Below, piece by piece: positions 1 through 17,094 of a DNA stretch of 64,000 nt. A program made the position numbers and the translations under genes. Every line of letters starts with the position of its first letter. Position 1 is the stretch's first letter. Where the stretch lies: assembly GCF_058153355.1 (NCBI RefSeq), contig NZ_CM177019.1; one strand, given 5' to 3'. The notes under the pieces are model-generated. The model did no database searches and was not told where the DNA came from. It saw nothing but the letters and a program-made list of their open reading frames with translations.

Positions 1-2
1 GT

Positions 3-389
3 TTTGATCTTCCGAGCGAAGATGAATGGGAATATTTATGTGGCGGTGGTTCCAGGACACTCTGGCGCTGGGGGAATAATTTCGACTATCAAATGAAAAT
101 CCCATTTATTACTTCAGAAGAACCAACAACCTGGGATATAGAATGGCCTAATCAGTTTGGGTTGCAGATTGCATTTGATCCCTATCTTCAGGAAATTATT
201 AATGATAAAGATATTCTTCTGAAAGGTGGCGATGGTGGGTGCAATCTCTGCGGAGGTGCTAATGTTGTATTAGGATTCTTGCCTGTGGCAACTTATTACA
301 AAGGATATAATAAACATACGGACGAATTAGAATATATGGATGACATTGGAGACAATTATACTTCTTATCGCAGAATAATTCGTTTATGA
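3..389 (+). CDS. 5'-truncated CDS at window edge; C-terminal part of a protein with a formylglycine-generating-enzyme-like (SUMF1/DUF323) signature
   Basis: Open frame runs from the window start to TGA at 387-389. Translation contains LPSEDEWEYLCGGG...WRWGN, resembling the LPTEAEWEYAARGG...PWGN core of FGE-like domains. Family call is from motif memory only. Confidence 0.35.
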   Translation, partial: FDLPSEDEWEYLCGGGSRTLWRWGNNFDYQMKIPFITSEEPTTWDIEWPNQFGLQIAFDPYLQEIINDKDILLKGGDGGCNLCGGANVVLGFLPVATYYKGYNKHTDELEYMDDIGDNYTSYRRIIRL

Positions 390-470
390 GTAAAAATTAT
401 ATTTCAGGACAAGAAGTTATGCTCGGGTCAAGCTAATGAATTGCTTAACGCAAGGAATAAAAACGTATTG

Positions 471-1952
471 ATGAACACTGGGAATTTCGAGTCGATACAA
501 ATCATGATCGACGCGCAAGAGTGGCGTAGCCTGCCGCTGCATCTGCGTCTGTATCACGCTTTTCGCCAATTGGTGATTTCCGGCGCATTGTCTGATGGCG
601 CAAAACTGCCTTCCGCTCGCGCACTGGCCCAGCAACTTGGTCTTTCCAGAGATACCATCGAAAATGCCTATTCCCAGCTCCACCGCGACGGTTTTATGGC
701 TCGCAGGCAGGGGGCCGGGAGTTTCGCCAGCCGCCAGGGGATACCGCATATTCAGGGCCAGCATGCGCAACCACCCTCGCCCGGACAAGTACCGGCTTTA
801 AGCGCTCGCTGGCAGCCAATTGCCGATCGCGCAGTCTCTTTCGATGCCCGCCAGATGCAGACCTTTACGCTTGGCCTGCCGGAAACGCGAAACTTCCCGC
901 TAAACATTTGGCAGAACTTTTCCCGCCAGATCCAACGTGAGCAGGCACATACGCTGATGTTAAATAGCGATCCGCAGGGCGAGCCACAGCTGCGCCAGCA
1001 AATTGCGCATTACCTTAATTTTGAACGCGGCGCGAAGGTAGATGCCGGGCAGATTGTGATTGTCAGCGGCGCACGGCAGGCGTTCTGGCTGTGCGGGCAA
1101 CTGCTGGCAGAGGCCGGACAGTCGGTGGCGATGGAAAATCCGGGCTATCCCGGCGCGCGTCAGGCGTTTTCTGCCGCACAGCTTAATCTTCTTCCCGTTG
1201 AAGTGGATGACGCCGGGATCCGGGTGGATAAACTGCCGCCCGCGCCGCTGGTTTACGTCACGCCCTCGCACCAGTTTCCTTCCGGTCATTTGCTCACGCT
1301 GGCGCGGCGTCATGCCCTGATTGCCTGGGCGCAGGCGCACAATGCGTGGATTATCGAAGACGACTACGACAGCGAATTTCACTACACCAGCGCGCCCGTC
1401 GCCTGTCTGCAAGGGTTAGACTGCGAGCAACGCACCCTGTATGTCGGCACTTTCAGCAAAACGCTCTATCCCGGCCTGCGCATCGGTTATCTGGTGGTGC
1501 CGACGTCGCTGGCTGCGCACTTTGCCGCCGCGCGTAATTTGCTTGATGGCGCAACGCCTGCGTTATCCCAACTAACGCTGGCGCGATTTATCGAGTCCGG
1601 TCATTTTGCCGCCCATATTCGCAACATGCGTAGTATGTATGCGGTGCGACAGGGGTGCCTGGCAGAGGCTATTCATCAGCACTTAAGTGAATGGGTCACG
1701 CCAGTGGTGACATCCGGTGGATTGCAAATGCCCTGCTGGCTGCATGGAGGTATTGATGAGCAACAGACGCTGAATGCCGCGCGCCGCGCCGGGTTAAACA
1801 TCGCCGGAATGCGCCAGTTCTGGCTGACGCACCCCGCGCACGCGGGCTGGCTGCTGGGATTCGCCGCCTTTACCCCCTACGAGATTGAACAGGGCGTCAA
1901 GCGTCTGCGGGCTGCATTATGCACTGAAAACGTGCGCCCAGCCGGGTCATAA
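471..1952 (+). CDS. MocR/GntR-family transcriptional regulator (N-terminal wHTH fused to a PLP aminotransferase-like domain)
   Basis: ORF-track 441..1952 begins at TTG. ATG at 471 sits about 13 nt after AGGAA. N-terminal HTH-like segment (LYHAFRQLVISGAL...LPSARALAQQLGLSRDTIENAY) followed by about 400 aa with aminotransferase-like features (SFSKTLYPGLRIGY). Visibly GC-rich. Confidence 0.75.
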   Translation: MNTGNFESIQIMIDAQEWRSLPLHLRLYHAFRQLVISGALSDGAKLPSARALAQQLGLSRDTIENAYSQLHRDGFMARRQGAGSFASRQGIPHIQGQHAQPPSPGQVPALSARWQPIADRAVSFDARQMQTFTLGLPETRNFPLNIWQNFSRQIQREQAHTLMLNSDPQGEPQLRQQIAHYLNFERGAKVDAGQIVIVSGARQAFWLCGQLLAEAGQSVAMENPGYPGARQAFSAAQLNLLPVEVDDAGIRVDKLPPAPLVYVTPSHQFPSGHLLTLARRHALIAWAQAHNAWIIEDDYDSEFHYTSAPVACLQGLDCEQRTLYVGTFSKTLYPGLRIGYLVVPTSLAAHFAAARNLLDGATPALSQLTLARFIESGHFAAHIRNMRSMYAVRQGCLAEAIHQHLSEWVTPVVTSGGLQMPCWLHGGIDEQQTLNAARRAGLNIAGMRQFWLTHPAHAGWLLGFAAFTPYEIEQGVKRLRAALCTENVRPAGS

Positions 1953-1956
1953 TCTC

Positions 1957-3003
1957 CTACGGGATGGTGTTGCAGGCAGCGGCAACCTGTTCCAGCGTCT
2001 GGCCTGCGCCAATAAATTCCACCTTATCGCCCGCTGTCGGCGTGACGGAGCTGGCATCGACCATAAAGCTGTCCATACAAACCCGCCCCAATACCGGTAA
2101 CCGCACGCCGCGCCAGCATACGCCCGCCGGAGGACGCATATTTCGCGGAACGCCATCCGCGTAACCCGCGGATATCGTAGCGATACGCAGCGGACGCGTG
2201 GCGGTAATCGTGCTGCCGTAGCCAACTGGCGTTCCCGCCGGGACATCCTGCACGCGCAGAATAGTTAGCGTCAGCGTAAAAGCCGGTTTTAGCGGCCTGG
2301 AAAACCACGGCTGGGCGACGCCAAACAGCGCAATCCCCGGACGGCAGAGATCTTCCCGCCAACCTGGTTGCAAAAACATTCCGCAGGAGTTCGCCAGCGA
2401 AAATCGGCTGCTGGGGAAAACCGTTTTTGCCTGCTGGAATAGCGCGTGTTGCGCCATATTTAACGCATGATCCGGCCTGTCGGCGTTCGCCAGATGGCTG
2501 ATGATATAGTCCGGCGCAGGCCAGTTACGCTCACGAAAAATCGCCGCCAGACGCATCAGTTGTTGCGGCATCATGCCCAGCCGCGACATACCAGAATCGA
2601 GCTGAATCATCACCGCGCTCCGTTGCTGGCGCGTTTCCAGTAACGTAAGCCACGCCATCACCTGGTCTACGGAATTGAGCAATGGCGTGATCTGCTGCGC
2701 GTAACAATACGCCATCGCCTCCGGCATAACCCCATTAAGCACTACCACCATCGCATCAGTGGGCAGGATTTTACGCAACGCCACGCCTTCAGAAAGCTGT
2801 GCGACAAAAAAGATCCGGCAGTTCGCCGCATACAGGGCGGGCGCAATCGCCTCCGCCCCCAGACCATAGGCATTGGCTTTCAACACCGCGCCACATTGCG
2901 CAGGGGCAGCATGGCGGGCCAGCATACGATAATTGTCGACGATGGCGGCGCGATTAACGCACATAACACCGCACGCCGCCTGGATTTCAGTAGAAGTCAT
3001 CAT
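1957..3003 (-). CDS. alanine racemase-family PLP enzyme (Alr paralog)
   Basis: 348-aa ORF with the AVLKANAYGLG PLP-lysine motif and overall colinearity with E. coli Alr. Start ATG overlaps the stop of the upstream SHMT-like gene (TAATG). GC-rich. Confidence 0.75.
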   Translation of the reverse strand: MMTSTEIQAACGVMCVNRAAIVDNYRMLARHAAPAQCGAVLKANAYGLGAEAIAPALYAANCRIFFVAQLSEGVALRKILPTDAMVVVLNGVMPEAMAYCYAQQITPLLNSVDQVMAWLTLLETRQQRSAVMIQLDSGMSRLGMMPQQLMRLAAIFRERNWPAPDYIISHLANADRPDHALNMAQHALFQQAKTVFPSSRFSLANSCGMFLQPGWREDLCRPGIALFGVAQPWFSRPLKPAFTLTLTILRVQDVPAGTPVGYGSTITATRPLRIATISAGYADGVPRNMRPPAGVCWRGVRLPVLGRVCMDSFMVDASSVTPTAGDKVEFIGAGQTLEQVAAACNTIP

Positions 3004-4238
3004 TAATAAGGCAACGGGTAGCGGTTGGTTAGTTGTATTACTTTTTGCTCAATATCGGCGCAAATGTCTGCAATATCTGATGAATTAATGGCGAAAATAA
3101 TTTCACTTATCCAGTCGGCAATCAGCGCAAAGTCATCCGCCTTCATCCCACGCGTGGTGCAGGCCGCGCTGCCAATACGAACGCCGGAGGTAATCAACGG
3201 CGGCTGCGGATCGCCCGGCAGGGTGTTTTTATTGACCGTGATCCCCGCCAGTTCGAGAAAGTACTCCACCTGTGCGCCGGTTAACCCCTGCGGGCGCAGG
3301 TCGATAATCCCCAGATGGCAGTCGGTGCCGTCCGTTAACAGCGTCAGGCCGCGCAGCGCCAGTTGCTGGCACATCGCCTGCGCATTGTCGATAACCTGCC
3401 CGGCATAACGTTTAAATTCCGGTTGTAATGCCTCGCCAAGCGCCACCGCTTTCGCTGCGATAACGTGCATCAACGGCCCGCCCTGCAAACCGGGAAAAAT
3501 GGCACTGTCGATTTTTTTCGCAAGCCTGGCGTCGTTGGTGAGGATCATGCCGCCGCGCGGCCCGCGCAATGTTTTATGCGTGGTGGTGGTGACCACATCA
3601 GCATACGCCAGCGGCGAAGGGAAACAGCCGCCCGCCACCAGCCCGGCAAAGTGCGCCATATCCACCAGCAAAATGGCGTCAACGGCATCGGCAATGCGGC
3701 GAAAACGGGCAAAATCATAGTGACGTGGATAAGCCGATCCTCCGGCAATAATCAACCGCGGGCGCTCACGCAGCGCGATCATCTCGACCTGATCCATATC
3801 AATCAAACCACTGTGCGCATCGACGCCATAGTGAAAAGCGTTAAACCATTTGCCGGATTGATTGACCGGCGAACCGTGCGTGAGATGCCCGCCGCATTGC
3901 AGGCTCATGCCAAGAATTTTGTCGCCGGGTTTCAGCAACGCCAGATGGACCGCCTGATTCGCCTGGCTGCCGGAGTGAGGCTGCACATTGACGTAACGCG
4001 CGCCAAAGAGCTGCTGCGCGCGGGTTATCGCCAGCATCTCAACCTCATCAATAAACTTACAGCCGCCGTAATAGCGATGCTGGTAATAACCTTCGGCGTA
4101 TTTATTGGTTAACACCGACCCCTGCGCCGCGAGAACGGCGGGGCTTACGAAATTCTCCGAGGCAATCAGTTCCAGCGACTGCTGCTGGCGCTGTTGCTCC
4201 TGGTTAATCAATGCAAAAAGTGGATCGTTATTTATCAT
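3003..4238 (-). CDS. serine hydroxymethyltransferase paralog (GlyA-like)
   Basis: Strong colinear similarity to GlyA ([57 protein letters not shown]). Start placed at MINNDPLF (ATG 4238), preceded by a GGGGGAAG RBS-like run; the ORF-track start at 4304 is an upstream extension. Confidence 0.85.
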
Positions 4239-4513
4239 GCGCTTCCCCCGCAAATTCATCATGCGATGATTTTCGCAGGGAAAACCTCGTCCGCACCCTG
4301 CCACTTTTTTGGGCAGGTGCAGACCACCTGTATGTCGTATTACTTAAAAGAAGAGAACATCGCTGACAATACCGGTATTAACTCCGAAATGAAGAGGGAA
4401 GAAGGCTCCGGCCATCTCCATGTGCGATTCTGGCTAGTAAAACATCATATTCCAGCTGCTCTTATCCGCCTACGTTATTGCATATACGGATAAGGCAGCC
4501 TCAATACGTACTT

Positions 4514-6067
4514 TTACTTGATATCTTTCACGCGCATACCGTTGATCTGTTCATCCGTGATGGTGTTACCCGCTTTAAAGTAATCAACCACCGCGTGATA
4601 AACGTAATAACCGCCCGTCGTATTGCGCGCTTTACCCTCGGTAAACGCGGTAAAACCATCTCCACCATCAGCAAGGAAACTCTGAGTGGCAATGTGGTAA
4701 ACCGTCGCATCTTCAATCGGTTTGCCATTCAAAGTCAGTGAGATAACCCGCTGACCAACCGGCTTGCTGCTGTCGTACTTCATTTCCAGGCCTTTCGATA
4801 CCTGTAAAACGCCATTACTTAAACTTGCGCCGTGTTCCATCAAACTGCGTAATTGTTTACCCGTGAGTTCCATCGTCACCAGTTCGTTGGGGAACGGGAA
4901 GGTACTGATGACGCCACCCATCGTAATTGCACCCGCCGGGATCTCATTGCGGATACCGCCAGAGTTGGTTAACGCCAACTGGGTATTTTTACCCGCCGCT
5001 GCCAGTAAAGCATCTGCCGCCAGGTTCCCGAGAGAAGCCGATTCACCATAGGCACGTTTTAGTTCAACCGGCGATTGCGCCACCGTTTGCTGCACGACTT
5101 CATCCAGCTTTTTATTCCAACTATCAATCACCTGTTTTGTTTGCGGATCGGGCTTCCACTCGTCGGCGTAAAGGGTTTTAAGCTCGAAGTTTTTCACCGT
5201 AAAAGTGTGCGGCTTCTCTTTGTAGTCCAGTACCAGTTTACCCACATCAATCCCACCGCTGTCAGTGGAGAGGATGAGCGTATTGCCGACTTTAATCGGT
5301 TCCGGCGTACCCACATGTGCATGCCCGGTGATCAAAATATCCAGCCCTTTCACCTGACTTGCCGTCTGAATATCTTTATCCAGTGCGCGGCGCACATCTG
5401 TGCCCCCCATACTGGACTGGCGGGCCGGAACACCTTCGTGAATCAGCGCAACGGTCAAATCAACCTTGCCTTTGAGTTCATCGATATAACGTTGTAGCCA
5501 TTTAATTTCATCACGCGCCTCAATACCCACTCGCGTTGCCGCAGATACCGTATCATTAAAGGCAAATACACCGTGCAAACCAATCACGCCAATTTTCACG
5601 CCGTCTTTTTCAATGATGGTATAGGGCTTATCCCAGAATGATTTACTGCTGTTCTGATAAAAAACATTACCCTGCACAATCGGGAATTTTGCCTGACTCA
5701 ACTGTAATAACGTATTGTCCCAGCCGTGATCAAATTCATGATTACCTATAGTGGCCGCATCGAACGGCATGGTATTCATAATATCGATAATCGCCTTGCC
5801 TTTAGTCAGGCTGCTGATATACGGCCCGGTAAAATAGTCACCCGCATCAAAAAACCAGGTCGCTTTGTTTTTAGCTTTTTCTTGTTTAACAAGCGTAGTG
5901 ATATTTGCCCAGCCGCCAATATCTCGTTTACCGTCAGCAATCCACGGCACTTTATAAGGCTCTACATGTGCATGGAGGTCGTTGGTATAAATGATGGTGA
6001 CATCTTTGGCGCAAGCCCAAAACGGCAGTGTTAATGCGATACCCGCAGCAAGCATTTTAATTTTCAT
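4514..6067 (-). CDS. secreted bifunctional metallophosphatase/5'-nucleotidase-family protein (UshA/CpdB-like), paralog 1
   Basis: N-terminal signal peptide ([20 protein letters not shown]). Metallophosphoesterase motifs NDLHAH, DAGDYF, GNHEFD, GHAH, followed by a 5'-nucleotidase C-terminal-like half. ATG 6067 follows GGAAGGGA; the ORF-track start 6073 is TTG. Confidence 0.85.
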
Positions 6068-6199
6068 AAACAATCCCTTCCAGTGAGATAAAGGATTGCT
6101 ACATTACGTTCTGAAAGGCTTTTTTATGTGAGAATACTCACATCCAGAGGCGATAACTGTAGGACAAAATCAACGACCTTATGAAATCGTTGGTGATAT

Positions 6200-7327
6200 A
6201 TGTCAAATCTGTTTGCGATTAATGTCTGTAAAACGTTCGGTTGTCGAAATTTGGGATTGGCCTCATCGGAAGATTACAGTTGGCCAGACTATAAACTGGG
6301 TTTTCCGGCACTGCACTGCCAGGCATGCGGAAGTTACCCCCCTTTGTTTGATGAACAACAATTTCGTGACTGGTTGTCAGTTCACATGACTGCGTGTGCC
6401 ATAGAAACAGGGCATTTTTGTCCATCATGCTATTGTAAAGAAAAGATTTTTTATGGCCACAACCCGCAGGGAACACAACGCGTTCAATGCCGTTCATGCA
6501 AAAAAGTCTGGACTCCGAAACAGCAGCCAGCAAGAGAAATTACGTATCCCCAGTCCATTGAAACCGTTCAACTGTTCATGCCCTTTCAAGGAGCCAGCGC
6601 AGTACAAAAGCTCTATGTTTTAGTCAGTCTTGACGCCACTCGTGGCAACATCCTTCATCTCTCCACGAATTATACGCAACATCAGACAGGAGACAGTCTG
6701 CGGTACAGTTACAGAGGCAATACAGAACCAACTGAGCACCATAGCGATATTGTGCAGAGGGTAGATATGCGTGAAGCGCAATTCTTGCGCCGGAGCCAGT
6801 TCGATGAAATTCAGTATGGCAGTGCTGTGCTCAAGCGCAACGGCAAGGGAGCCATACTACGCCCGGTTATCACGGCACACGGGCATTTCAGAATACTGAA
6901 AATCCGCTTTCCACATGTCAAAACGCATATCATTTCACACGAATGTTTTCTGAGAGGCGCAATTATTACAGCCTGGGCAGATCAGTTCCGCCAACAACAA
7001 GGCGAACTTTGGTTCGTAGAAGAAGAAATCAGCGACCGTAACGCTGATATTCCCTGGCATTTTCAGGGAACGACATACCATGGTTGGTGGCAAAATCAGT
7101 GGCAACGCTGGGGGCAGGGGAATAACAGCAAGATGGTCTGCCTGCTCACAGGAGTCTCCTTAGAAAGGGGCGCAAATGTTTCTCTGGCAACCAGTCGTTG
7201 CTTTATCACATGGCTGACAGACCAACACGACTTTACCCAAAGCGCGTTATTATCCGCAGGTCGCGTAACGAAAATGCTGACCTCACTGGCGTTAAAATAC
7301 AATGAATCGCTCAATCCATCTTGTTAG
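6200..7327 (+). CDS. hypothetical Cys-rich protein (zinc-ribbon-like N-terminus, W/Q-rich C-terminus)
   Basis: 375-aa ORF with CxxC pairs (CQACGS...CPSCYC...CRSCKK). No family I can assign with confidence. Flanked by AT-rich DNA and sits between nucleotidase paralogs. Confidence 0.5.
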   Translation: MSNLFAINVCKTFGCRNLGLASSEDYSWPDYKLGFPALHCQACGSYPPLFDEQQFRDWLSVHMTACAIETGHFCPSCYCKEKIFYGHNPQGTQRVQCRSCKKVWTPKQQPAREITYPQSIETVQLFMPFQGASAVQKLYVLVSLDATRGNILHLSTNYTQHQTGDSLRYSYRGNTEPTEHHSDIVQRVDMREAQFLRRSQFDEIQYGSAVLKRNGKGAILRPVITAHGHFRILKIRFPHVKTHIISHECFLRGAIITAWADQFRQQQGELWFVEEEISDRNADIPWHFQGTTYHGWWQNQWQRWGQGNNSKMVCLLTGVSLERGANVSLATSRCFITWLTDQHDFTQSALLSAGRVTKMLTSLALKYNESLNPSC

Positions 7328-7556
7328 TCAATACACTCGACAAACGACCATAAATTAATGGGATCACTATTTCTCATTTAATTAAATATATGAATGTATG
7401 ACTGAAAAATATAATCACAGTCAATGTTTAATTAATAACATTATTTGTTACTAAGATCACATAATACTTTCCTGACCTATGCTTACATAAAAATAAGACA
7501 CGGAGTTCCTTTTATTTAAATAATTCAACCAATGTAACAACCCCTATCAAGGAGGG

Positions 7557-9110
7557 ATGATGAGAACTGTATTTACGACTTTATCAGTCATATTCAGCGT
7601 GATGTTTTCTCACAGTATACTAGCTCAGGACGTTACTATTTATTATACGAATGATATTCACGCACATGTCAATCCGGCAAAAATTCCCGCTGTTGATAAG
7701 AACAGACTTGTAGGTGGTATGGCTAATATTGCAGGCATCGTTAATGAAGCGAAGAAAAAAAACAAAGATGTCTTTTTCTTTGATGCAGGCGACTATTTTA
7801 CCGGTCCGTATATCAGTACCCTGACCAAAGGTGAAGCTATTATTGATATCATGAACACCATGCCCTTTGATGCGGTATCCGTTGGTAATCACGAGTTCGA
7901 TCACGGCGTGCCCAATATGGTATCTCAGTTATCAAAAGCAAAATTCCCCATTCTGCTGGGAAATATTTACTACACCGATACAAATAAACCAGTTTGGGAT
8001 CATCCGTGGACCATTATCGAAAAAGATGGTTTAAAGATTGGTGTGATTGGATTGCATGGTGCATTCGCTTTCTATGATACAGTCGCGGCAAAAGCACGTG
8101 AAGGCGTAGAAGCCAGAGACGAAATTAAATATTTAAATAAAGCACTTGCAGAATTAAAAGGTAAAGTCGACATTACCGTTTTGCTAATTCACGAAGGTGT
8201 TCCGGCGCGTCAATCAAGCTTTGGTAGTAAAGATGTGGAGCGGCTACTACAGGCAGATATTGAGACAGCTAAAAAAGTGAATGGTGTTGATGTCTTAATT
8301 ACCGGTCACGCACATGTCGGAACACCGCAACCAATAAAAGTTAATAACACATTAATTGTATCTACCGATGCATACGGCACCGACATCGGAAAACTTGTGC
8401 TTGATTACAATCCGAAAACGAAGAAAATTGATAGTTATAATGGTGAGTTAATCACCATCTTCGCAGATCAATTTAAACCTGACACCATCGTTCAAAATAC
8501 TATCGATAAATGGAGTGCAAAGCTTAACAAAATAACACAGGAAGTTGTCGGCCATTCTCCCGTAGTTTTAACACGTGAGTATGGCAGTTCTTCTTCTACC
8601 GGTAACCTTATTCTTGATGCAATGATGGAAAAAACACCAGATGCCATTGCCGGATTTCAAAATAGCGGTGGGATGCGAGCTGATTTTCCTAAAGGTGATA
8701 TCACGCTGGGAGATGTTATTAGCACATTCCCCTTTAATAATGACCTCATCGAGATGGATTTGACGGGCCGCGATCTCAAATCGTTGATGACGCATGCAAC
8801 CAATCTAACTAACGGTGTGTTACAGGTTTCAAAAAGCGTTGCGGTTGTCTATGACAGCAAAAAACCACTGAACCAACGGTTAATCTCTTTCACCATTAAC
8901 GGCAAACCCGTGGAAGATAATCAAACATATCGTATTGTCACGCACTCCTTTTGTGCCAGTGGTGGTGACGGTTTTGAAGCATTTTTGAATGGAAAAAATG
9001 TGAAGACGATACCGGGAACAACCTCGGCGGAATCTATCATCGATTATTTCAAAAATCATAAACCTGTCACCCCAGACTTAACTAAACGAGTAATGGACGT
9101 CGCCAAATAA
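7557..9110 (+). CDS. secreted bifunctional metallophosphatase/5'-nucleotidase-family protein, paralog 2
   Basis: AAGGAGGG immediately upstream (ATG 7557 or 7560). Signal peptide, then NDIHAH, DAGDYF, GNHEFD, GHAH motifs; colinear with paralogs 1 and 3. Confidence 0.85.
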   Translation: MMRTVFTTLSVIFSVMFSHSILAQDVTIYYTNDIHAHVNPAKIPAVDKNRLVGGMANIAGIVNEAKKKNKDVFFFDAGDYFTGPYISTLTKGEAIIDIMNTMPFDAVSVGNHEFDHGVPNMVSQLSKAKFPILLGNIYYTDTNKPVWDHPWTIIEKDGLKIGVIGLHGAFAFYDTVAAKAREGVEARDEIKYLNKALAELKGKVDITVLLIHEGVPARQSSFGSKDVERLLQADIETAKKVNGVDVLITGHAHVGTPQPIKVNNTLIVSTDAYGTDIGKLVLDYNPKTKKIDSYNGELITIFADQFKPDTIVQNTIDKWSAKLNKITQEVVGHSPVVLTREYGSSSSTGNLILDAMMEKTPDAIAGFQNSGGMRADFPKGDITLGDVISTFPFNNDLIEMDLTGRDLKSLMTHATNLTNGVLQVSKSVAVVYDSKKPLNQRLISFTINGKPVEDNQTYRIVTHSFCASGGDGFEAFLNGKNVKTIPGTTSAESIIDYFKNHKPVTPDLTKRVMDVAK

Positions 9111-9150
9111 AATATCATTTATCAGTCTATTTATTTAACAAGGAATGCGA

Positions 9151-10770
9151 ATGAAAACAGTGCAGCGTACTTTACTTGCCGCAACATTGCTGACTATTTT
9201 TTCGGTCTCAGCCATGGCGCAGGATGTCACGATTATTTATACCAATGATCTTCACGCTCATGTGGATTCTTATAAAGTGCCGTATATCGCAGACGGAAAA
9301 CGCGACATTGGCGGCTTTGCCAATATATCTACTTTAGTAAAACAAGAGAAAGCGAAAAATAAAGCCACCTTTTATTTTGATGCTGGAGACTATTTCACCG
9401 GCCCTTATATCAGCAGTCTGACAAAGGGCGAAGCAATAATTGACATTATGAATACCATGCCTTTTGACGCAGTATCAATCGGTAATCATGAGTTTGACCA
9501 TGGCTGGGATAATGCCCTGCGACAATTAAGCAAAGCGAATTTTCCTGTTTTATTGGGCAATGTTTATCATAAAGAGAGTGAGAAACCCTTCTGGAACAAG
9601 CCCTACACCATCCTGGAAAAAGATGGCATCAAGATTGGTATTATTGGGCTACACGGCGTATTTGCATTTAATGATACGGTCTCGGAGCTCTCTCTCCAGG
9701 GACTCGATAATGACAATAATAACCGCTTTGATAAATCTTCCGAGACCCTTAAGAATCAGGGGATTGAAGCACGTGATGAAGTGAAGTATTTGCAGCATTA
9801 TATCGACGAGTTACGTGATAAGGTTGACCTCACTGTGGCGCTGGTTCATGAAGGCGTTCCGGCGCGTCAGTCCAGCATTGGCATTACAGATGTTAGACGC
9901 GCTCTTGATAAAGATATTCAAACCGCTAGCAAGGTGAAAGGATTGGATATTCTGATTACCGGGCATGCCCACGTCGGAACGCCAGAACCAATCAAAGTCG
10001 GCAACACCTTAATCCTTTCAACTGATAGTGGCGGTATCGATATTGGTAAATTAGTCCTTGATGTCAACCCTACAGCTCGTACCCATAAAATGAAGAGCTT
10101 TGAGCTGAAAACAGTTTATGCCGATGAATGGATACCCGATCCAACGACACAAAAAGTTATCAATGGCTGGAATAAAAAACTGGCGGATATTGTACGCCAA
10201 CCAGTGGGTGAATCATCGATTGCATTAACTCGCGCCTATGGTGAGTCATCGCAACTAGGCAACCTGTTTACCGATGCAATGCTTGTCGCTGCTCCGACTG
10301 CACAGATTGCATTGATAAACTCCGGCAGCTTACGTGCGGATATAAATGCAGGCACGATTACCTTTGGCGACATTACCAGTACATTCCCCTTCAAGAATGA
10401 ACTTACTGAAATGGATCTCAGCGGTAAGGATCTGCGTAACCTACTGGAACACGGGGCATCGCTTACCAATGGCATCCTGCAAATGTCAAAAGGCGCAGAA
10501 ATGCGCTATACCCCGCAGAAACCAGTAGGTCAGCGCATAGTATCTTTTAAAATTAATGGTGAAGAGATCGTTGATACGAATATTTACCATGTTGCAACAA
10601 CGACTTTCCTTGCACTGGGGGGCGATGGTTTTCTGGCATTCAAAGAAGGGAAAAATGTTCAGGTCCGCGCCGGAAAAAACATGTCCGATGTCGTGATCGA
10701 TTATTTGAAGAAAGGCCACAAGATTACGCCTGCACAGGTAAATGAAATGCGGGTGGACGTTAGCAAATAA
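9151..10770 (+). CDS. secreted bifunctional metallophosphatase/5'-nucleotidase-family protein, paralog 3
   Basis: ATG 9151 lies 7 nt after AAGGA (ORF-track start 9145). Very close to paralog 1 over most of its length but with an extra insert of about 25 aa (ELSLQGLDNDNNNRFDKSSETLKNQG). Followed by a hairpin terminator. Confidence 0.85.
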   Translation: MKTVQRTLLAATLLTIFSVSAMAQDVTIIYTNDLHAHVDSYKVPYIADGKRDIGGFANISTLVKQEKAKNKATFYFDAGDYFTGPYISSLTKGEAIIDIMNTMPFDAVSIGNHEFDHGWDNALRQLSKANFPVLLGNVYHKESEKPFWNKPYTILEKDGIKIGIIGLHGVFAFNDTVSELSLQGLDNDNNNRFDKSSETLKNQGIEARDEVKYLQHYIDELRDKVDLTVALVHEGVPARQSSIGITDVRRALDKDIQTASKVKGLDILITGHAHVGTPEPIKVGNTLILSTDSGGIDIGKLVLDVNPTARTHKMKSFELKTVYADEWIPDPTTQKVINGWNKKLADIVRQPVGESSIALTRAYGESSQLGNLFTDAMLVAAPTAQIALINSGSLRADINAGTITFGDITSTFPFKNELTEMDLSGKDLRNLLEHGASLTNGILQMSKGAEMRYTPQKPVGQRIVSFKINGEEIVDTNIYHVATTTFLALGGDGFLAFKEGKNVQVRAGKNMSDVVIDYLKKGHKITPAQVNEMRVDVSK

Positions 10771-10782
10771 TAAAAAAATTAT

Positions 10783-10816
10783 AATGCCATTCATTCACTG
10801 AATGGCATTATTTTCT
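10783..10816 (+). terminator. rho-independent terminator after nucleotidase paralog 3
   Basis: Palindrome AATGCCATTCA...TGAATGGCATT followed by a T-rich run. Confidence 0.6.
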
Positions 10817-10847
10817 CTAAATCAACAATAGATAATGAGATATATTT

Positions 10848-11708
10848 ATGTGTATAAAAAAGCACGGGATAGCTTTATCGATTCTATTAATACCTTGCAT
10901 TGGAAACGCTCAGGAAATTAAAAGTGAGGAAGGCTGGTTACATCAAAGCTTGAATGTCATTGGTCGCACAGACTCTCGCTTTGGCCCAAGGCTGACTAAC
11001 GACCTCTACCCTGAATATACTGTAGCAGGAAGAAAAGACTGGTTTGATTTTTATGGTTATGTTGATCTACCAAAATTCTTTGGCGTCGGCAGTCACTATG
11101 ATGTTGGGATCTGGGATGAGGGCTCACCACTATTTACGGAAATAGAACCTCGGTTTTCCATTGACAAATTGACCGGATTAAATCTTGCGTTCGGCCCTTT
11201 TAAAGAATGGTTCATTGCAAACAACTATGTCTATGATATGGGTGACAACCAGTCATCCCGGCAAAGTACATGGTATATGGGGCTTGGTACAGATATCGAC
11301 ACGGGTCTACCAATTAAGCTTTCTGCCAATATATACGCCAAGTATCAGTGGCAAAACTATGGTGCCGCTAATGAAAATGAATGGGACGGATATCGATTCA
11401 AAATAAAATATAGCATTCCTCTTACCCATTTATTCGGAGGGCGATTGGTATACAATAGTTTTACTAACTTTGATTTTGGATCCGATCTTGCGGACAAATC
11501 ACACAATAATAAACGAACCAGTAATGCTATTGCTTCAAGCCATATCCTTTCCCTGCTATATGAACACTGGAAATTTGCATTTACACTACGTTATTTTCAC
11601 AACGGTGGACAATGGAATGCTGGGGAGAAAGTTAACTTCGGAGATGGTCCATTTGAATTAAAAAACACAGGATGGGGAACCTATACTACTATTGGTTATC
11701 AATTTTAA
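10848..11708 (+). CDS. Tsx-family nucleoside-specific outer-membrane channel (Tsx paralog)
   Basis: 286-aa ORF with signal peptide and long colinear identity to E. coli Tsx ([70 protein letters not shown], terminal F). Confidence 0.85.
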
Positions 11709-11885
11709 ATCAGGTGATGTTTTAGATATTTTTACTTAATGCCATTTTGTAATTGTCATAAATAACTTCACCATTCACACTGTGAATTCATCGCTCAACA
11801 CAAAAGCCCCCTTATTACCGGGGCACTGACCAAAGGCAAAATGACAATCAATCACCACCTCCGCAGGAGGTGGTTTAGAGGTGAC

Positions 11886-11913
11886 AACAAAAGCTGGCAA
11901 CTGCCAGCTTTTG
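11886..11913. terminator. palindromic hairpin downstream of metL (likely bidirectional terminator)
   Basis: ACAAAAGCTGGCAACTGCCAGCTTTTGT palindrome just past the metL stop. A second palindrome (ACCACCTCCGCAGGAGGTGGT) lies at 11854-11874. Confidence 0.55.
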
Positions 11914-11924
11914 TTCAATAATCA

Positions 11925-14357
11925 CTACAACAACTGCGCCAGACGGTTAATATCCGACTGAATCGCCCCGGCGGTGACGTCGCGCCCTGCGCCTGGCCCA
12001 CGGATCACCAGCGGGTTGTCGCGATACCAGCGGCTTTCGATGGCAAAGACGTTATCGCACGGTAGTAGTGATGCCAGCGGATGGTCTTCTCGCACCGCTT
12101 CCACGCCTACTCGCGCTTTGCCGTTAGCATCGAAACGCGCCACGTAGCGCAACACCAGCCCCATTTCACGGGCCGCTTCCAACCGTTGTACCATCTGCTC
12201 ATTAAGTTCATCGCCATTTTCAAAGAAATGGTCGATGCTGCCACCTTCGCAATGGGTTGGCACCAGTGATTCAACACGCACCTGGTCCGGTTCAATGTTG
12301 TAACCCGCTTCACGCGCCAGAATCACCAGCTTGCGCATCACATCTTTGCCGGAGAGGTCATCACGCGGGTCAGGTTCAGTTAAGCCCTGCTGCCACGCCT
12401 GATCCACCAGCTCAGTAAACGGCACGCTACCGTCGAATTGCAGGAACAGCCAGGAGAGCGTGCCGGAGAAGATCCCGCTGATCGACAAAATAGTGTCGCC
12501 GCTGTCGATCAGATCGCGCACGGTATGGTTGATCGGCAAACCTGCGCCGACGGTGGCGTTGTATAGCCAGTGACGCCCGGTTTTTTCGAACGCGTCGTGG
12601 ATCTGTCGATATTTATTGCTGTCGCTGGCTCCCGCCAGTTTGTTGGCACTGATGACGTGGAAACCGTGGCTGGCGAAATCGAGATACTGATCAGCAAGCT
12701 GCTGGCTGGCAGTAACGTCCAGCACCACTAAATCATCATACGGATGGGCACGCATCCACAGGAACAGCGACTCTTCATCCTGTTCGACGGCTTCATCATT
12801 AAAGAAGGCTAGCGCACGGCTGGCGTCCAGCCCGTCATAGCTCAACAGGCTGCGACGGCTGTCCACCACGCCTGCCAGCACAAATTCAAAGCCGGTGCGC
12901 GCCGAGAGCGTGCTCTGCTCACGGGCGAACAGTTCCAGCCAGCGGGAACCGATATTGCCCTTACCGAACAATACCAGGCCGATGCGTTTTTCTGCGCGGA
13001 AGACGGACTGATGCAGCCCCTGAATCAGGCTTTCGGTCGGCCCGGTGCGCAGTACTGCCACCAGGCTGATGCCGTCATCGGACTGCCAGGTAAACTCGAC
13101 CGGCTGGCCTTTCAGTTGCTGCCAGAAGCGGTGGCAATGCAGCGGGTTACGGGTGACGCCCGCCCCAACCATCGCCACCAGCGCCAGCCCCTGACGCAGG
13201 CGCAGTTCGCCGGGTAATCCTGCTTCGTCGAGGATTTTCAGCGCACTGTCGGCCACTTCCGAGGTGTAGCAAAATTGCAGCAACTGGCGATCGTTATGCA
13301 CGCCAACTGCCAGTGGGCGCACCTGAGCACGTTTCAGGATTTGGTCGATCTCTTTATGCGCCAGTTTAAAATCCTGACTGGCGGGCACCTGAAACTCAAT
13401 CAAACAGACATCATCGTGGCTGGTGACAATACGCGCGCCAGTACCTGAGGCCAGCACGCGTTCAATACGCGTAGATCCTTGATCCGGTGTATAGCTACAG
13501 CGCAGCTGCAGGTCGATTTCGCTGCCAGAAACTGGCTGTAAAGTACGCGCGTGCAACACTGGCGCGGCAAGACGCGCCAGTTCACTGGCTTCATCAAGAC
13601 GCAGCAATGGCAGCAGACAGGCATCTTTCACTTTACGCGGGTCGGCACTATATACCCCGGCGACATCGCTCCAGATGGTTACGCGGGAAACCCCCGCCAG
13701 CGCACCGATTTGTGTCGCGGAATAGTCGGAACCGTTACGCCCCAGCAGCACCGTTTCACCGGCGTTGTTACGGCTGATAAACCCGGTCACCACCAGACGT
13801 TTGCCCGGATGTTGTACCAGTAGCTGTTGCAGCAACGGGTAAGAAAGCCCTTCATCAACCTGCGGCTGCGCGGCGCGTTCAGCGCGTAAAAACTCGCGGG
13901 CATCAAGCCAGGCCGCTGGCAGCCCTTGTTGATTAAGTACCGCAGACATCAGGCGCGCCGACCACACTTCACCGTGGCCCACCACTTCCGCATACACCGC
14001 ATCGTTAATACCGCTGTCGAGCAGCGCCGCCAGGCGTTCCAGATCGCTGACAAAAGCGCTAATGAGGCTATCGGCTTCTTCAGCGGGTAGCAGGCCGCTA
14101 ATCAGATCGCACTGATAGCGACGCAGCGTTTGTTGAACCTGATGCGCAGAGAGACGATCGGTCTGGCTTAGTTTCAACCAGTTAATCAACTGGTTAGTGG
14201 TGCTACCGGCGGCGGAAACCACCATCATATCGTCAGGCTGAGAGTACTCCGCCATAATGCCCGCGACACGCAAATAACACTTCACATCAGCCAGACTACT
14301 GCCACCAAATTTATGCAGTTGACGACCTTTCGCCCCTGCCTGCGCAATCACACTCAT
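11925..14357 (-). CDS. metL: bifunctional aspartokinase II / homoserine dehydrogenase II
   Basis: 810-aa ORF matching MetL in length and sequence. Two-nt gap to metB, as in the metBL operon. Confidence 0.95.
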   Translation of the reverse strand: MSVIAQAGAKGRQLHKFGGSSLADVKCYLRVAGIMAEYSQPDDMMVVSAAGSTTNQLINWLKLSQTDRLSAHQVQQTLRRYQCDLISGLLPAEEADSLISAFVSDLERLAALLDSGINDAVYAEVVGHGEVWSARLMSAVLNQQGLPAAWLDAREFLRAERAAQPQVDEGLSYPLLQQLLVQHPGKRLVVTGFISRNNAGETVLLGRNGSDYSATQIGALAGVSRVTIWSDVAGVYSADPRKVKDACLLPLLRLDEASELARLAAPVLHARTLQPVSGSEIDLQLRCSYTPDQGSTRIERVLASGTGARIVTSHDDVCLIEFQVPASQDFKLAHKEIDQILKRAQVRPLAVGVHNDRQLLQFCYTSEVADSALKILDEAGLPGELRLRQGLALVAMVGAGVTRNPLHCHRFWQQLKGQPVEFTWQSDDGISLVAVLRTGPTESLIQGLHQSVFRAEKRIGLVLFGKGNIGSRWLELFAREQSTLSARTGFEFVLAGVVDSRRSLLSYDGLDASRALAFFNDEAVEQDEESLFLWMRAHPYDDLVVLDVTASQQLADQYLDFASHGFHVISANKLAGASDSNKYRQIHDAFEKTGRHWLYNATVGAGLPINHTVRDLIDSGDTILSISGIFSGTLSWLFLQFDGSVPFTELVDQAWQQGLTEPDPRDDLSGKDVMRKLVILAREAGYNIEPDQVRVESLVPTHCEGGSIDHFFENGDELNEQMVQRLEAAREMGLVLRYVARFDANGKARVGVEAVREDHPLASLLPCDNVFAIESRWYRDNPLVIRGPGAGRDVTAGAIQSDINRLAQLL

Positions 14358-14359
14358 TT

Positions 14360-15520
14360 TTACCCCTTGTTTGCAGCCCGGAAGCCATTTTCCAGGTCGG
14401 CAATTAAATCTTCGCCATCTTCAATACCGGTGGAGATACGCAGCAGCGTCTCGGAGATCCCGGCGGCAGCACGCGCTTCTGGTGCCATGCCTGCATGTGT
14501 CATGGTTGCGGCGTGAGAGATTAAACTTTCCACTCCCCCTAATGATTCCGCCAGCGTAAACAACGACAACCCGCCCAGGAAACGACGCAGCGTCTGCTCA
14601 TCGCCATCCAGTTCAAAACTCAACATTGCGCCAAAGCCTTTTTGCTGGCGCGCGGCAATTTCATGCCCCTGATTTTCCGGCAGCGACGGGTGATACAGTT
14701 TTTTCACCAACGGCTGGGTTTGCAGATATTTCACAATCGTCTGCGCGTTGCGCTGCGCCAGCTCCATACGCGGCACCAGCGTTCGCAACCCGCGTAGCAG
14801 CAGATAGCTGTCAAACGCGCCGCCCGTCACACCAATATTGTTTGCCCACCAGGCCAGTTCGGTGACAACGTCCGGGTCTTTAGCAATCACCACGCCAGCC
14901 ACTACATCTGAGTGACCGTTCAGATATTTCGTGCATGAATGCAACACCAGATCGGCACCTAATGCCAGTGGATTTTGTAATGCCGGGCTTAAGAAGGTGT
15001 TATCCACCACGCTCACCGCCCCGACTTCCCTTGCCAGATGGCAGATTTTCGCAATATCCACGACGCGTAACAATGGATTACTTGGGCTTTCTACCAGTAC
15101 TAGTTTGGGTTTTTCTGCCAGTGCCGCCTGCAATGCCTGCTCATCTCCTTGATCAACAAACAGCACGCGATAACAGCCGCGTTTCGCCAGGCTGTCGAAC
15201 AGGCGATAGCTGCCGCCGTAGCAGTCGTGCGGTGCAACCAGCAAATCGCCAGGTTTCAAAAAGACAGTCGTTACCAGGTGGATGGCAGACATGCCGGTAT
15301 TAGTCAGCACTGCACCAGCACCGCCTTCCAGTTCTGCCAGCGCACGCTGAACCACATCGCGCGTTGGGTTGCCGCGACGCGAGTAATCATGCGCGCGCGG
15401 TTCATTAAATCCGATAAAGTTATAGGTGCTGGAAAGATGGATGGGAGGGACAACGCAACCATACTGTTCGTCGTCATTTAACCCGCTACGCACTGCGATG
15501 GTGGCCTGTTTACGCGTCAT
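14360..15520 (-). CDS. metB: cystathionine gamma-synthase
   Basis: Native N-terminus MTRKQATIAVRSGL recognised (ATG 15520); ORF-track entry is extended upstream. Confidence 0.95.
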   Translation of the reverse strand: MTRKQATIAVRSGLNDDEQYGCVVPPIHLSSTYNFIGFNEPRAHDYSRRGNPTRDVVQRALAELEGGAGAVLTNTGMSAIHLVTTVFLKPGDLLVAPHDCYGGSYRLFDSLAKRGCYRVLFVDQGDEQALQAALAEKPKLVLVESPSNPLLRVVDIAKICHLAREVGAVSVVDNTFLSPALQNPLALGADLVLHSCTKYLNGHSDVVAGVVIAKDPDVVTELAWWANNIGVTGGAFDSYLLLRGLRTLVPRMELAQRNAQTIVKYLQTQPLVKKLYHPSLPENQGHEIAARQQKGFGAMLSFELDGDEQTLRRFLGGLSLFTLAESLGGVESLISHAATMTHAGMAPEARAAAGISETLLRISTGIEDGEDLIADLENGFRAANKG

Positions 15521-15584
15521 GTGATGAAGTTCCCTGGGCTTGGTCGGTGAAATGTCAGGCACCAGAGTAAACATTGTGTTAATG

Positions 15585-15611
15585 GACGTCAATACATCTG
15601 GACATCTAAAC
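15585..15611. promoter_or_regulatory. tandem MetJ operator (met boxes) in the metJ-metB divergent control region
   Basis: Reverse strand reads AGATGTCC AGATGTAT TGACGTCC, tandem 8-mers related to the AGACGTCT met-box consensus, between divergent metJ and metB. Confidence 0.7.
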
Positions 15612-15796
15612 TTCTTTGCGTATAGATTGAGCAAATCCCAAATAGCCGTTAAAATTATATGCATTATCACGCCGACAGGTGCATTACACGATGTCACGGT
15701 AACGCCTGTACGGTAAACTATGCGGGTTTACGGTCAGTACCCACATAAATTGTGTGGTCTGGTCTCAATTTATTGACGAAGAGGATTAAGTATCTC

Positions 15797-16114
15797 ATGG
15801 CTGAATGGAGCGGCGAATATATCAGCCCATACGCTGAGCACGGCAAGAAGAGTGAACAAGTCAAAAAGATTACGGTTTCCATTCCTCTTAAGGTGTTAAA
15901 AATCCTCACCGATGAACGCACGCGTCGTCAGGTGAACAACCTGCGTCACGCTACCAACAGCGAGCTGCTGTGCGAAGCGTTTCTGCATGCCTTTACCGGG
16001 CAACCTCTGCCGGATGATGCCGACCTGCGTAAAGAGCGCAGCGACGAAATCCCGGAAGCGGCAAAAGAGATCATGCGTGAGATGGGGATTAACCCGGAAA
16101 CGTGGGAATACTAA
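15797..16114 (+). CDS. metJ: methionine repressor
   Basis: [18 protein letters not shown]...ETWEY, 105 aa; ORF-track start 15752 is upstream of the native ATG. Confidence 0.95.
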
Positions 16115-16124
16115 AGCGGAAAAG

Positions 16125-16155
16125 AGCGGCGCGGAGTTAACCAGCCGCTTTTTTC
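16125..16155 (+). terminator. putative metJ terminator
   Basis: AGCGGC...GCCGCT stem followed by TTTTTT. Confidence 0.45.
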
Positions 16156-16173
16156 ATACATGGACGTTTAACT

Positions 16174-16782
16174 ATGAAATACAGGCTACTGATCCTCAGC
16201 ATGCTGGTTTCTGTGCCTGCCCTTGCCTGGCAGCCGGAAACTGGCGACATCATCTTTCAGATCTCTCGCTCATCGCAAAGTAAAGCAATCCAACTGGCGA
16301 CCCATTCCGATTACAGCCACACCGGTATGCTGGTGATGCGTAACAAAAAGCCCTACGTTTTTGAAGCGGTCGGCCCGGTGAAATACACCCCGCTCAAGCA
16401 GTGGATCGCCCATGGTGAAAAGGGCAAATACGTTGTTCGCCGCGTTGAAGGCGGACTGAGTGTTGAACAACAGCAAAAACTGGCGCAAACGGCAAAACGT
16501 TATCTCGGCAAACCGTACGATTTCAGCTTCTCGTGGAGTGATGATCGCCAGTACTGTTCGGAAGTAGTGTGGAAGGTTTACCAGAACGCACTGGGAATGC
16601 GCGTGGGTGAACAGCAAAAACTGAAAGAGTTCGATCTCAGCAACCCGCTGGTTCAGGCGAAGCTCAAAGAACGTTACGGGAAAAATATTCCGCTTGAAGA
16701 AACGGTGGTCTCGCCACAAGCCGTTTTCGATGCGCCACAACTCACCACAGTCGCCAAAGAATGGCCGCTGTTTTCGTGGTAA
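16174..16782 (+). CDS. yiiX: YiiX family protein (putative lipid-binding hydrolase)
   Basis: 202-aa ORF MKYRLLILSMLVSVPALA...; position between metJ and rpmE. Confidence 0.85.
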   Translation: MKYRLLILSMLVSVPALAWQPETGDIIFQISRSSQSKAIQLATHSDYSHTGMLVMRNKKPYVFEAVGPVKYTPLKQWIAHGEKGKYVVRRVEGGLSVEQQQKLAQTAKRYLGKPYDFSFSWSDDRQYCSEVVWKVYQNALGMRVGEQQKLKEFDLSNPLVQAKLKERYGKNIPLEETVVSPQAVFDAPQLTTVAKEWPLFSW

Positions 16783-16802
16783 TACGACCAAAATTCAGGC
16801 AC

Positions 16803-16830: not shown

Positions 16831-16842
16831 GGAAATCCGGTC

Positions 16843-17094
<252 letters not shown>

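Follow-up and report, generated by a model that had tools for sequence, protein, structure and literature searches.

The stretch of DNA analysed here, referred to as the window, comprises 64,000 nucleotides of contig NZ_CM177019.1 (NCBI RefSeq assembly GCF_058153355.1). Its first 11.9 kb belong to an insert between the core genes metF and metL, and four blocks were distinguished in it. Block A is the 3' part of a gene of the formylglycine-generating enzyme (FGE) type. Block B combines a MocR-like regulator with paralogs of alanine racemase (Alr) and serine hydroxymethyltransferase (SHMT), two enzymes dependent on pyridoxal phosphate (PLP). Block C pairs a 5'-nucleotidase (nucleotidase 1) with a cysteine-rich (Cys-rich) open reading frame (ORF), and block D contains two further nucleotidases and a paralog of the nucleoside channel Tsx. 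An earlier reading of the same DNA, made from the letters alone (the sequence-only reading), had listed the MocR regulator, the Alr-like and SHMT-like genes, three nucleotidases, the Cys-rich ORF and the Tsx paralog, and the ORFs together with NCBIfam searches bear this list out. The features are collected in Table 1. We consider it likely that the metF–metL interval is a hotspot without mobility machinery of its own, where homologous recombination between conserved flanking genes brings cargo in, removes it and rearranges it.

Table 1. Features of the metF–metL insert and its right flank in the window (aa, amino acids; GC3, GC content at third codon positions)
Feature	Position	Strand	Remarks
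Block A, 3' 129 codons of a 324-aa gene	1..389	+	36% GC, GC3 27%
MocR/PdxR-like regulator, 493 aa, intact (block B)	471..1952	+	GntR winged helix-turn-helix and PLP aminotransferase-like domain
Alanine racemase paralog, truncated (block B)	1957..3003	-	nonsense codon at Tyr349 (Y349*); 'alanine racemase 3' in Salmonella records
SHMT paralog, intact (block B)	3003..4259	-	start at 4259 or 4238
B/C junction, three-piece deletion scar	4260..4513		254-bp spacer; blastn against the E. fergusonii LysR-CMD region
Scar piece 1	4270-4382		SHMT upstream region and final bases of LysR gene; 95.6% to E. fergusonii
Scar piece 2	4387-4463		77-bp internal LysR fragment; 90.9% to E. fergusonii, 73% to Citrobacter LysR
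Scar piece 3	4460-4513		nucleotidase 1 3' flank; 83.9% to E. fergusonii
Nucleotidase 1, metallophosphatase/5'-nucleotidase, 517 aa (block C)	4514..6067	-	core paralog; predicted secreted
CRP-type perfect palindrome TGTGA-N6-TCACA	6127..6142		divergent nucleotidase 1/Cys-rich promoter region
Inverted repeat CAACGA..TCGTTG	6171..6192		directly upstream of Cys-rich ORF; arms conserved across genera, loop varies
Cys-rich 'cytoplasmic protein', 375 aa (block C)	6200..7327	+	zinc-ribbon motifs C10/C15/C40/C43 and C74/C77/C97/C100
CRP-like site, one mismatch	7446..7461		in 28% GC spacer upstream of nucleotidase 2
Nucleotidase 2, 517 aa (block D)	7557..9110	+	40.7% GC
Nucleotidase 3, 541 aa (block D)	9145..10770	+	539 aa from annotated start
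Tsx nucleoside outer-membrane channel paralog, 286 aa (block D)	10848..11708	+	bidirectional hairpin before gene at 10781-10811
Right junction spacer	11709..11924		metL terminator-like hairpin at 11854-11874 (- strand)
metL (core flank)	11925..14357	-	haplotype common to 2013C-4282, Z0117EC0005 and E. fergusonii

In K-12 W3110 the gap between metF and metL measures 348 bp, compared with about 12.7 kb in the E. coli genome studied here, of which 11.9 kb lie inside the window. The claim that extra DNA sits beyond metL relative to K-12 was thus correct, and K-12 is without all of window positions 1-11924. The K-12 interval was compared by pairwise BLAST with the window and four other E. coli loci. 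Homology restarts at the metL stop codon (window 11926), and on the metF side it stops 159 bp upstream of the metF start codon. The remaining 190 bp of the K-12 spacer are unrelated to the island and contain an element similar to repetitive extragenic palindromic (REP) sequences. The left boundary had been placed outside the window, with the advice to seek the metF junction further left. Both points held: in 2013C-4282, the closest complete E. coli genome (98.7% identity to window 1-12000), the junction was found, the inserted DNA amounts to 12.66 kb and it starts about 780 bp before the first base of the window. The core segment at 11900-20000 is 98.7% identical to many complete E. coli genomes.

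Block C was compared across genera. Nucleotidase 1 shares 90-92% amino acid identity with the copies adjacent to a Cys-rich gene in Salmonella, Citrobacter, Enterobacter and E. albertii. Its Escherichia–Salmonella divergence at synonymous sites (dS) is 1.36, next to values of 1.45 for gldA, 1.10 for katG, 1.18 for metF and 1.01 for metL, and the ratio of nonsynonymous to synonymous divergence (dN/dS) is 0.02-0.04. The gene order in Citrobacter freundii and Pseudocitrobacter is metF, LysR, CMD, nucleotidase, Cys-rich gene, metL; these genomes have no block B, and LysR stands directly beside metF. Since block C occupies the metF–metL interval in several genera and has core-like dS, it is ancestral, consistent with vertical descent, and the K-12 state was derived by deletion. 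Of 5426 complete E. coli genomes, 1844 (34%) carry block C, with deep alleles at 87-99% identity.

The Cys-rich gene was always partnered with nucleotidase 1 across a conserved spacer with a CRP site, in all ten loci examined from six genera. Both zinc-ribbon motifs of the protein are invariant among homologues, and the family is limited to the Enterobacteriaceae, where it forms 252 clusters. Two deep allele classes exist in E. coli, with 73% nucleotide identity, as distant from each other as copies of different species. An AlphaFold2 (AF2) model built with 20 homologues had a pLDDT of 39.9 and was unusable, the homologues being too shallow for a better alignment. The half-sites of the CRP palindrome are conserved and the N6 between them is variable in four E. 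coli loci, which cover both Cys-rich allele classes, as well as in E. fergusonii, Salmonella, Citrobacter and E. albertii. Only two perfect TGTGA-N6-TCACA palindromes occur in the 64-kb window, and the other one, at 61705-61720, is far from the island. The inverted repeat at 6171-6192 could be an operator or a hairpin in the 5' untranslated region of the mRNA.

All three genes of block B were identified by profile searches. The MocR-like regulator scored 426.7 bits against the NCBIfam model PdxR (NF052282, cut-off 320), and its homologues are matched by the Pfam domains PF00392 and PF00155. The SHMT paralog reached 605 bits against NF000586 (cut-off 335), retains the PLP lysine motif (14 residues) and matched SHMT structures in the PDB down to E=1e-155. 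For the racemase, the intact allele of 2013C-4282 scored 234 bits against TIGR00492 (cut-off 168), and the nearest solved structure is Bartonella Alr 3kw3. Compared with the intact 368-aa alleles, the window racemase stops at codon 348 and does not have the conserved C-terminal Tyr-Glu segment. Due to the Y349* stop, the window cassette is without a full-length racemase. The 348-aa truncated allele is identical to cluster P0278, and the residual reading frame runs on to 1897, where it overlaps the mocR 3' end. The SHMT gene carries separate internal stops in 2013C-4282/WL297 and in GF4-3. Altogether four independent nonsense mutations were found in block B of Escherichia: Alr Y349* in the window, Alr Q113* in one E. 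fergusonii, a Gln-to-stop change of SHMT in 2013C-4282 and WL297, and SHMT Q20* in GF4-3. The long-term dN/dS of the cassette is 0.07-0.2, and thus it has been functional.

The age of block B was judged from synonymous sites. Between Escherichia and Salmonella its three genes have dS values of 0.46, 0.51 and 0.43, less than half those of flanking genes with equal GC3, and therefore the cassette is younger than the split of the two genera. An age equal to that split, as read from raw nucleotide identity, was overturned by this analysis. The edges of the cassette are sharp. When the copies from E. coli, E. fergusonii and Salmonella are aligned, homology starts at the mocR ATG, with wholly divergent sequence upstream of it; on the other side it extends to some 95 bp ahead of the SHMT gene, past which the sequences are wholly different.

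Homologues of the MocR-like regulator at 82-97% identity were found only in E. coli, E. fergusonii and Salmonella, followed by proteins of Janthinobacterium and Pseudomonas at about 50%. Outside the three host taxa the racemase is 43-47% identical to alphaproteobacterial copies. A racemase search of 100,044 species-representative genomes returned nothing closer than 50% identity, and no donor was identified. The copies in Salmonella and E. fergusonii retain at least one of the search peptides. The species-representative Salmonella and E. fergusonii genomes are therefore without block B as well, and the cassette is accessory in all three hosts. A homologue in Enterobacteriaceae bacterium B14 has a different gene context and was set aside. 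Among the 5426 complete E. coli genomes, block B occurs in three, 2013C-4282, WL297 and GF4-3, the first two of which also carry block A.

The spacer between blocks B and C contains three pieces that match the E. fergusonii LysR-CMD region (Table 1). Thus the spacer is a scar left by deletion of the LysR-CMD gene pair, which is still present in E. fergusonii. Another 41 bp are missing at this junction in 2013C-4282 and GF4-3, between 'gaagag' repeats. Blocks B and C also adjoin each other in Salmonella and E. fergusonii; the adjacency was therefore not created in the window strain.

The block A gene begins about 585 bp left of the window, and full-length copies were found in 2013C-4282 (L001:11415-12389), WL297 and E. 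fergusonii. It is absent from the GF4-3 and Salmonella loci that were compared. The Pfam FGE-sulfatase family matched the protein weakly, and a PDB profile search returned FGE and ToxD. An AF2 model reached a pLDDT of 93.6, and Foldseek led from it to FGE with E=1e-5 and a TM score of about 0.4. According to this confident model, block A encodes a predicted cytoplasmic protein with the FGE-sulfatase fold. The family comprises 930 clusters. In GF4-3 (L003:7289-9878) a phosphotransferase system (PTS) EIIC gene and a MalI-like regulator fill the metF-side slot, the position of block A in the window lineage.

Block D was found in 660 of the 5426 complete E. coli genomes (12%), among them UTI89 and LF82. 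It is 96.3% identical to UTI89-type genomes and 99.8% to Z0117EC0005. The three nucleotidases of blocks C and D are old paralogs, 54-66% identical to one another, and each has orthologues in clusters of E. albertii and Enterobacter at other chromosomal sites. Nucleotidase 2 shares 54-58% amino acid identity with the other two and 71-72% with the E. albertii and Enterobacter cluster paralogs. For nucleotidase 3 the amino acid identity is 87% with E. albertii NucD and 66% with nucleotidase 1; the genes of nucleotidases 3 and 1 form an inverted repeat (76% over 461 nt). The Tsx paralog scored 491.8 bits over its full length against NCBIfam PRK15106 (cut-off 311). In E. albertii (L093:134-10131), next to kdsA, a Cys-rich cluster contains four nucleotidases, Tsx and a radical-SAM gene, and in Enterobacter hormaechei (L092:4658-10176) such a cluster holds two nucleotidases and Tsx. 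Clusters with the Cys-rich gene were thus seen at three chromosomal sites, namely metF–metL, the kdsA-proximal site of E. albertii and a third one in Enterobacter. The combination of Cys-rich gene, nucleotidases and Tsx at other chromosomal sites marks it as a recurring unit.

We compared the metF–metL loci of K-12, LF82, Z0117, GF4-3, 2013C-4282, WL297, E. fergusonii, Salmonella, Citrobacter and Pseudocitrobacter, and at least eight distinct contents were seen. In E. fergusonii the Citrobacter-type order is extended towards metF by blocks A and B. The order in Salmonella enterica is metF, MocR-Alr-SHMT, nucleotidase, Cys-rich gene, a 332-aa ORF (with MscS) and metL. GF4-3 has the PTS EIIC gene and the MalI-like regulator in place of block A, and no block D. 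The Salmonella slot between the Cys-rich gene and metL (L086:17084-18942) is taken by the 332-aa ORF, which had no match in Pfam, PADLOC or PHROG, and an MscS-type mechanosensitive channel; in E. coli the same slot holds nucleotidases 2 and 3 and Tsx.

The flanks and parts of the insert have different nearest relatives. Window 1-4382 is 97.9% identical to E. fergusonii, and the dS of the window racemase gene is 0.011 to the E. fergusonii allele and 0.065 to that of 2013C-4282. The metF gene of 2013C-4282 matches E. fergusonii at 98.2% and K-12 at 95.7%. For the window metL the value is 97.2% to E. fergusonii (97-98.5% to 2013C-4282, Z0117EC0005 and E. fergusonii as a group), compared with 94.7% to K-12. 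Only a few kb away, E. fergusonii gldA is 87% identical to E. coli, with a dS of 0.72. From yijE through metB, E. fergusonii is 96-99.5% identical to E. coli (dS 0.08-0.13), and this inter-species recombination tract has a sharp edge. The high identity from yijE to metB, set against the 87% of gldA, shows that a block of about this extent has passed between E. fergusonii and a rare lineage of E. coli.

The metL and metF alleles fall into two groups, one with the window, 2013C-4282, Z0117 and E. fergusonii, the other with K-12, LF82 and GF4-3. The flank alleles co-vary with the cargo, which points to exchange by homologous recombination. A breakpoint can be located within block C, in the spacer between its two genes, since identity to E. 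fergusonii drops from 98% in the window nucleotidase 1 to just 73% in the Cys-rich gene. The right half of the insert, the Cys-rich gene (allele 1) together with block D, is 99.8% identical to Z0117EC0005. We also observed that metL is unusually polymorphic in E. coli, with a between-allele dS of 0.15-0.25, 200-bp windows as low as 89-92% and a dN of almost zero. In one E. fergusonii assembly (L088:11427-16852) the racemase, LysR and nucleotidase 1 genes are each split into two ORFs, which suggests either wholesale decay of the locus or sequencing errors in the Logan assembly.

The sequence-only reading had explained the insert as two foreign modules, one GC-rich and one AT-rich, that were acquired horizontally from different donors and joined at this locus in this lineage. 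We regard this as improbable. The contrast in base composition itself was confirmed. GC content is 57.9% (GC3 64-66%) in block B (471-4259), 47.3% in block C (4514-7327) and 41.5% (GC3 35-44%) in block D (7557-11708). There is thus a step of 16 points between blocks B and D, and the two spacers described as AT-rich measure 38.9% (6074-6199) and 28.4% (7328-7556). The first 440 bases (38% GC) were missed as a separate block. The remainder of the window has a mean of 51.4% with a standard deviation (sd) of 3.7 in 1-kb windows, and of the 1-kb windows outside the island 2% reach 58.5% GC or more and 1.5% are at 42% or less. Thus blocks A and D deviate (38% and 41.5%) and block C (47%) lies within 1.1 sd of the window mean. 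The core neighbour metL has 57.6% GC and a GC3 of 63%, the same as block B, so that composition alone is no mark of foreign origin for the cassette. The low GC of the right part is a trait of the nucleotidase/Tsx gene family, which is AT-rich in every genus measured.

Other observations fit the two-donor explanation. The inter-genus dS of block B lies below that of its neighbours, the cassette has sharp edges, and only a minority of E. coli genomes carries block B or block D. The description of the insert as mosaic also stands insofar as its parts differ in history (dS 0.43-0.51 in the cassette against 1.36 in nucleotidase 1), with four blocks rather than two. Against an imported right module, nucleotidase 1 and the Cys-rich gene are at this locus in five genera with core-like dS, which largely refutes the explanation for block C and makes K-12 the deleted state. 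Likewise, the modules were not joined in this lineage, because Salmonella and E. fergusonii also have the B–C adjacency and the junction arose by deletion rather than insertion.

The opposite explanation, differential loss without any horizontal transfer, would make the whole 12.7 kb ancestral to Escherichia and Salmonella and all other states deletions. It is consistent with the ancestral block C, with the same position of block B in Salmonella and Escherichia and with the existence of deletion scars. However, the dS of block B is less than half of that of flanking genes with the same GC3. Moreover, Citrobacter and Pseudocitrobacter have LysR beside metF and no block B, Salmonella is without blocks A and D and has other genes in the block D slot, and the E. 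coli Cys-rich allele classes are as far apart as copies of different species. We therefore give this explanation little credit, slightly less than the previous one.

No signs of a dedicated mobility system were detected. There is no tRNA or tmRNA gene in window 1-20000, and the insert runs from the metF promoter region to the metL stop codon. Integrase or transposase genes were not found in the ORF list or with NCBIfam, Pfam, PHROG and PADLOC, with the exception of a weak IS1 zinc-ribbon likeness of the Cys-rich ORF. Flanking direct repeats were absent from 1-12300, where only short repeats at chance level and the nucleotidase paralog repeats occurred, and the left end outside the window gave no repeat signal in the 2013C-4282 comparison. 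Rfam had no match in 1-16500. PADLOC matched neither the block A protein nor the Cys-rich protein nor the Salmonella 332-aa ORF, and gave no sign of a defence system. Plasmid copies of blocks A, B and D were not found; only chromosome-like records with nucleotidase 1 and the Cys-rich gene matched. Past yiiX, 2013C-4282 (L001:28832-35957) carries an ISAs1 transposase, a group II intron reverse transcriptase, an IS1 fragment and an RHS element; the window appears ordinary at this place, with priA following yiiX, as judged from ORF positions and the LF82/Z0117 layout.

A classical integrative or pathogenicity island moved by a site-specific recombinase or insertion sequence, with the Cys-rich ORF as the relic of an IS1-type transposase, could draw on the weak matches of this ORF to the IS1 InsA zinc ribbon and on the Cys-rich, nucleotidase and Tsx clusters at two other chromosomal sites (Enterobacter and E. 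albertii), but it is very unlikely, because integrase, tRNA, terminal inverted repeats and direct repeats were not found and the Cys-rich gene is under purifying selection and syntenic across genera. The similarity to IS1 InsA and the N-terminal part of IS1 transposase spans only about 30-60 residues with E values of 4e-4 to 0.04. That the Cys-rich protein might be an exapted derivative of an IS1/IS1595-type transposase, which formerly moved the cluster and now regulates the nucleotidase and Tsx genes, is a speculative idea to which we attach a low probability.

A recombination hotspot in conserved flanks remains our preferred explanation, and the following history would account for the window. 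The oldest layer would be metF, LysR, CMD, nucleotidase 1, the Cys-rich ORF and metL, as in Citrobacter and Pseudocitrobacter. The block B cassette would later have been inserted between metF and LysR and then exchanged between Salmonella and Escherichia. The AT-rich FGE-fold gene of block A may have joined on the metF side, after which deletion of LysR-CMD would have left the scar seen in the window. On the metL side, an incoming allele would have brought the divergent Cys-rich gene together with nucleotidases 2 and 3 and the Tsx paralog. K-12-type strains would have lost all cargo. The window would thus consist of an E. fergusonii-like left half and a right half like the published region GR 31, which is discussed below. 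The order of these events and the direction of the exchange between E. coli and E. fergusonii are what we infer from sequence comparison.

Plasticity regions of E. coli between core genes carry alternative cargo within fixed flanks and have no dedicated mobility genes. The locus resembles them in that the window flanks also have raised diversity and linked alleles. It differs in that the oldest cargo is ancestral to several genera, so that 'island absent' is the derived state, and in that the exchange crosses the boundary between E. coli and E. fergusonii.

Blocks C and D, which make up most of the insert, correspond to the region GR 31 published in PMC12928451 (PLoS One 2026); what is new is the rare left part, which is partly pseudogenised. 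In that paper, GR 31 is described between metL and metF in the avian pathogenic strain BEN2908 and in extraintestinal pathogenic (ExPEC) and adherent-invasive E. coli of group B2, i.e. in the same slot, with a Tsx-like gene of 861 bp and UshA-like genes of 1620, 1551 and 1554 bp. The ORFs match in order and length in the window, LF82 and UTI89. The Tsx-like protein of GR 31 is given there as 67% identical to Tsx, and the authors propose nucleotide processing and nucleoside import (PMC12928451). The published region has 7.8 kb; here blocks A and B, towards metF, bring the total to 12.7 kb. Relative to the criterion of more than 95% nucleotide identity used in that paper, block D reaches 96.3% to UTI89-type genomes and block C about 92-93% to the B2 alleles. 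The Cys-rich ORF, the CRP site, the cross-genus synteny and the ancestral core are not discussed in the parts of PMC12928451 that were consulted. Beyond GR 31, we found no literature on a metF–metL hotspot.

The functional prediction for blocks C and D follows from the domains. All three nucleotidases contain the metallophosphatase and 5'-nucleotidase C domains, as derived from NCBIfam alignments and from Pfam matches on orthologues. Read directly, their translations contain the motifs NDLHAH/NDIHAH, DAGD, GNHEFD and GHAH and have hydrophobic signal-like N-termini. Against the UshA equivalog NF007109 (cut-off 600 bits) they scored only 152.9, 165.0 and 155.6 bits. Thus they form a separate paralog family within the same fold family and are not UshA orthologues. 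We suggest that blocks C and D would constitute a system under the control of cAMP-CRP, in which three secreted paralogs of differing specificity would dephosphorylate extracellular or periplasmic nucleotides, and the nucleosides would then be imported through the dedicated Tsx-type channel. The Cys-rich zinc-ribbon protein would be a likely DNA-binding partner of this system. Resemblance to the known UshA/Tsx scavenging under CRP(-CytR) lies in the nucleotidase domain architecture, the Tsx-family channel and the canonical CRP palindrome in the promoter region. In contrast to K-12, where ushA and tsx are unlinked, enzymes and channel are clustered in the window, and no CytR operator was identified in the window locus. 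By analogy with the layouts of other E. coli loci, cytR is about 8 kb away in the window core.

Block B is predicted to consist of a PLP-sensing regulator and a two-gene SHMT-racemase operon for amino-acid conversion, crippled here by the racemase stop. The overlapping SHMT and racemase genes are probably co-translated by translational coupling. With its GntR-type DNA-binding and aminotransferase-fold domains and a score above the PdxR cut-off, the regulator is like those of the MocR family (PdxR/GabR type). Among MocR regulons without an assigned function, SHMT genes of the GlyA family are found repeatedly (Suvorova and Rodionov 2016, PMC5320631). Different from known MocR systems, no pdx gene lies in the locus in any genome examined, the neighbours being SHMT and Alr, and the SHMT-Alr operon is convergent with overlapping 3' ends instead of divergent. 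An inverted repeat, ATCAT-GCG-ATGAT, at 4258-4270 overlaps the upstream SHMT start codon and is a candidate MocR operator; it sits in a leader of about 90 bp that is conserved across E. coli, E. fergusonii and Salmonella. On a speculative view of low probability, block B may provide spare copies of the two PLP enzymes known to be inactivated by 2-aminoacrylate stress in Salmonella. Alternatively, it may serve the catabolism of a D- or alpha-methyl amino acid, with D-serine and alpha-methylserine as ideas. No literature on 'alanine racemase 3' was found.

Several points weigh against the interpretation given above. No island remnant was detected in the K-12 spacer by blastn-short, and the loss in K-12-type strains is therefore supported by the phylogenetic distribution alone. 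Block B is patchy in Salmonella and E. fergusonii too, and a common third donor for both may have existed. The dS values were obtained by the simple Nei-Gojobori method on single representatives, and for the Cys-rich gene dS is saturated. The comparison genomes were a handful picked through protein look-ups rather than a phylogenetically structured panel. Finally, it is from sequence only that we predict control by CRP, secreted nucleotidases and the part played by the Cys-rich protein.

The findings do not overturn current understanding. They show that absence from K-12 combined with unusual GC content is not the same as a recent foreign island, as the core of this region predates the genus. 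For GR 31, a region associated with B2 and ExPEC strains whose function is so far only guessed, they provide an anchor across genera as well as a CRP site and a partner protein, both of them conserved. A rare cassette of PLP enzymes is common to E. coli, E. fergusonii and Salmonella and has been repeatedly inactivated in Escherichia. In addition, a haplotype of at least 13 kb shared between E. coli and E. fergusonii is documented around the hotspot.

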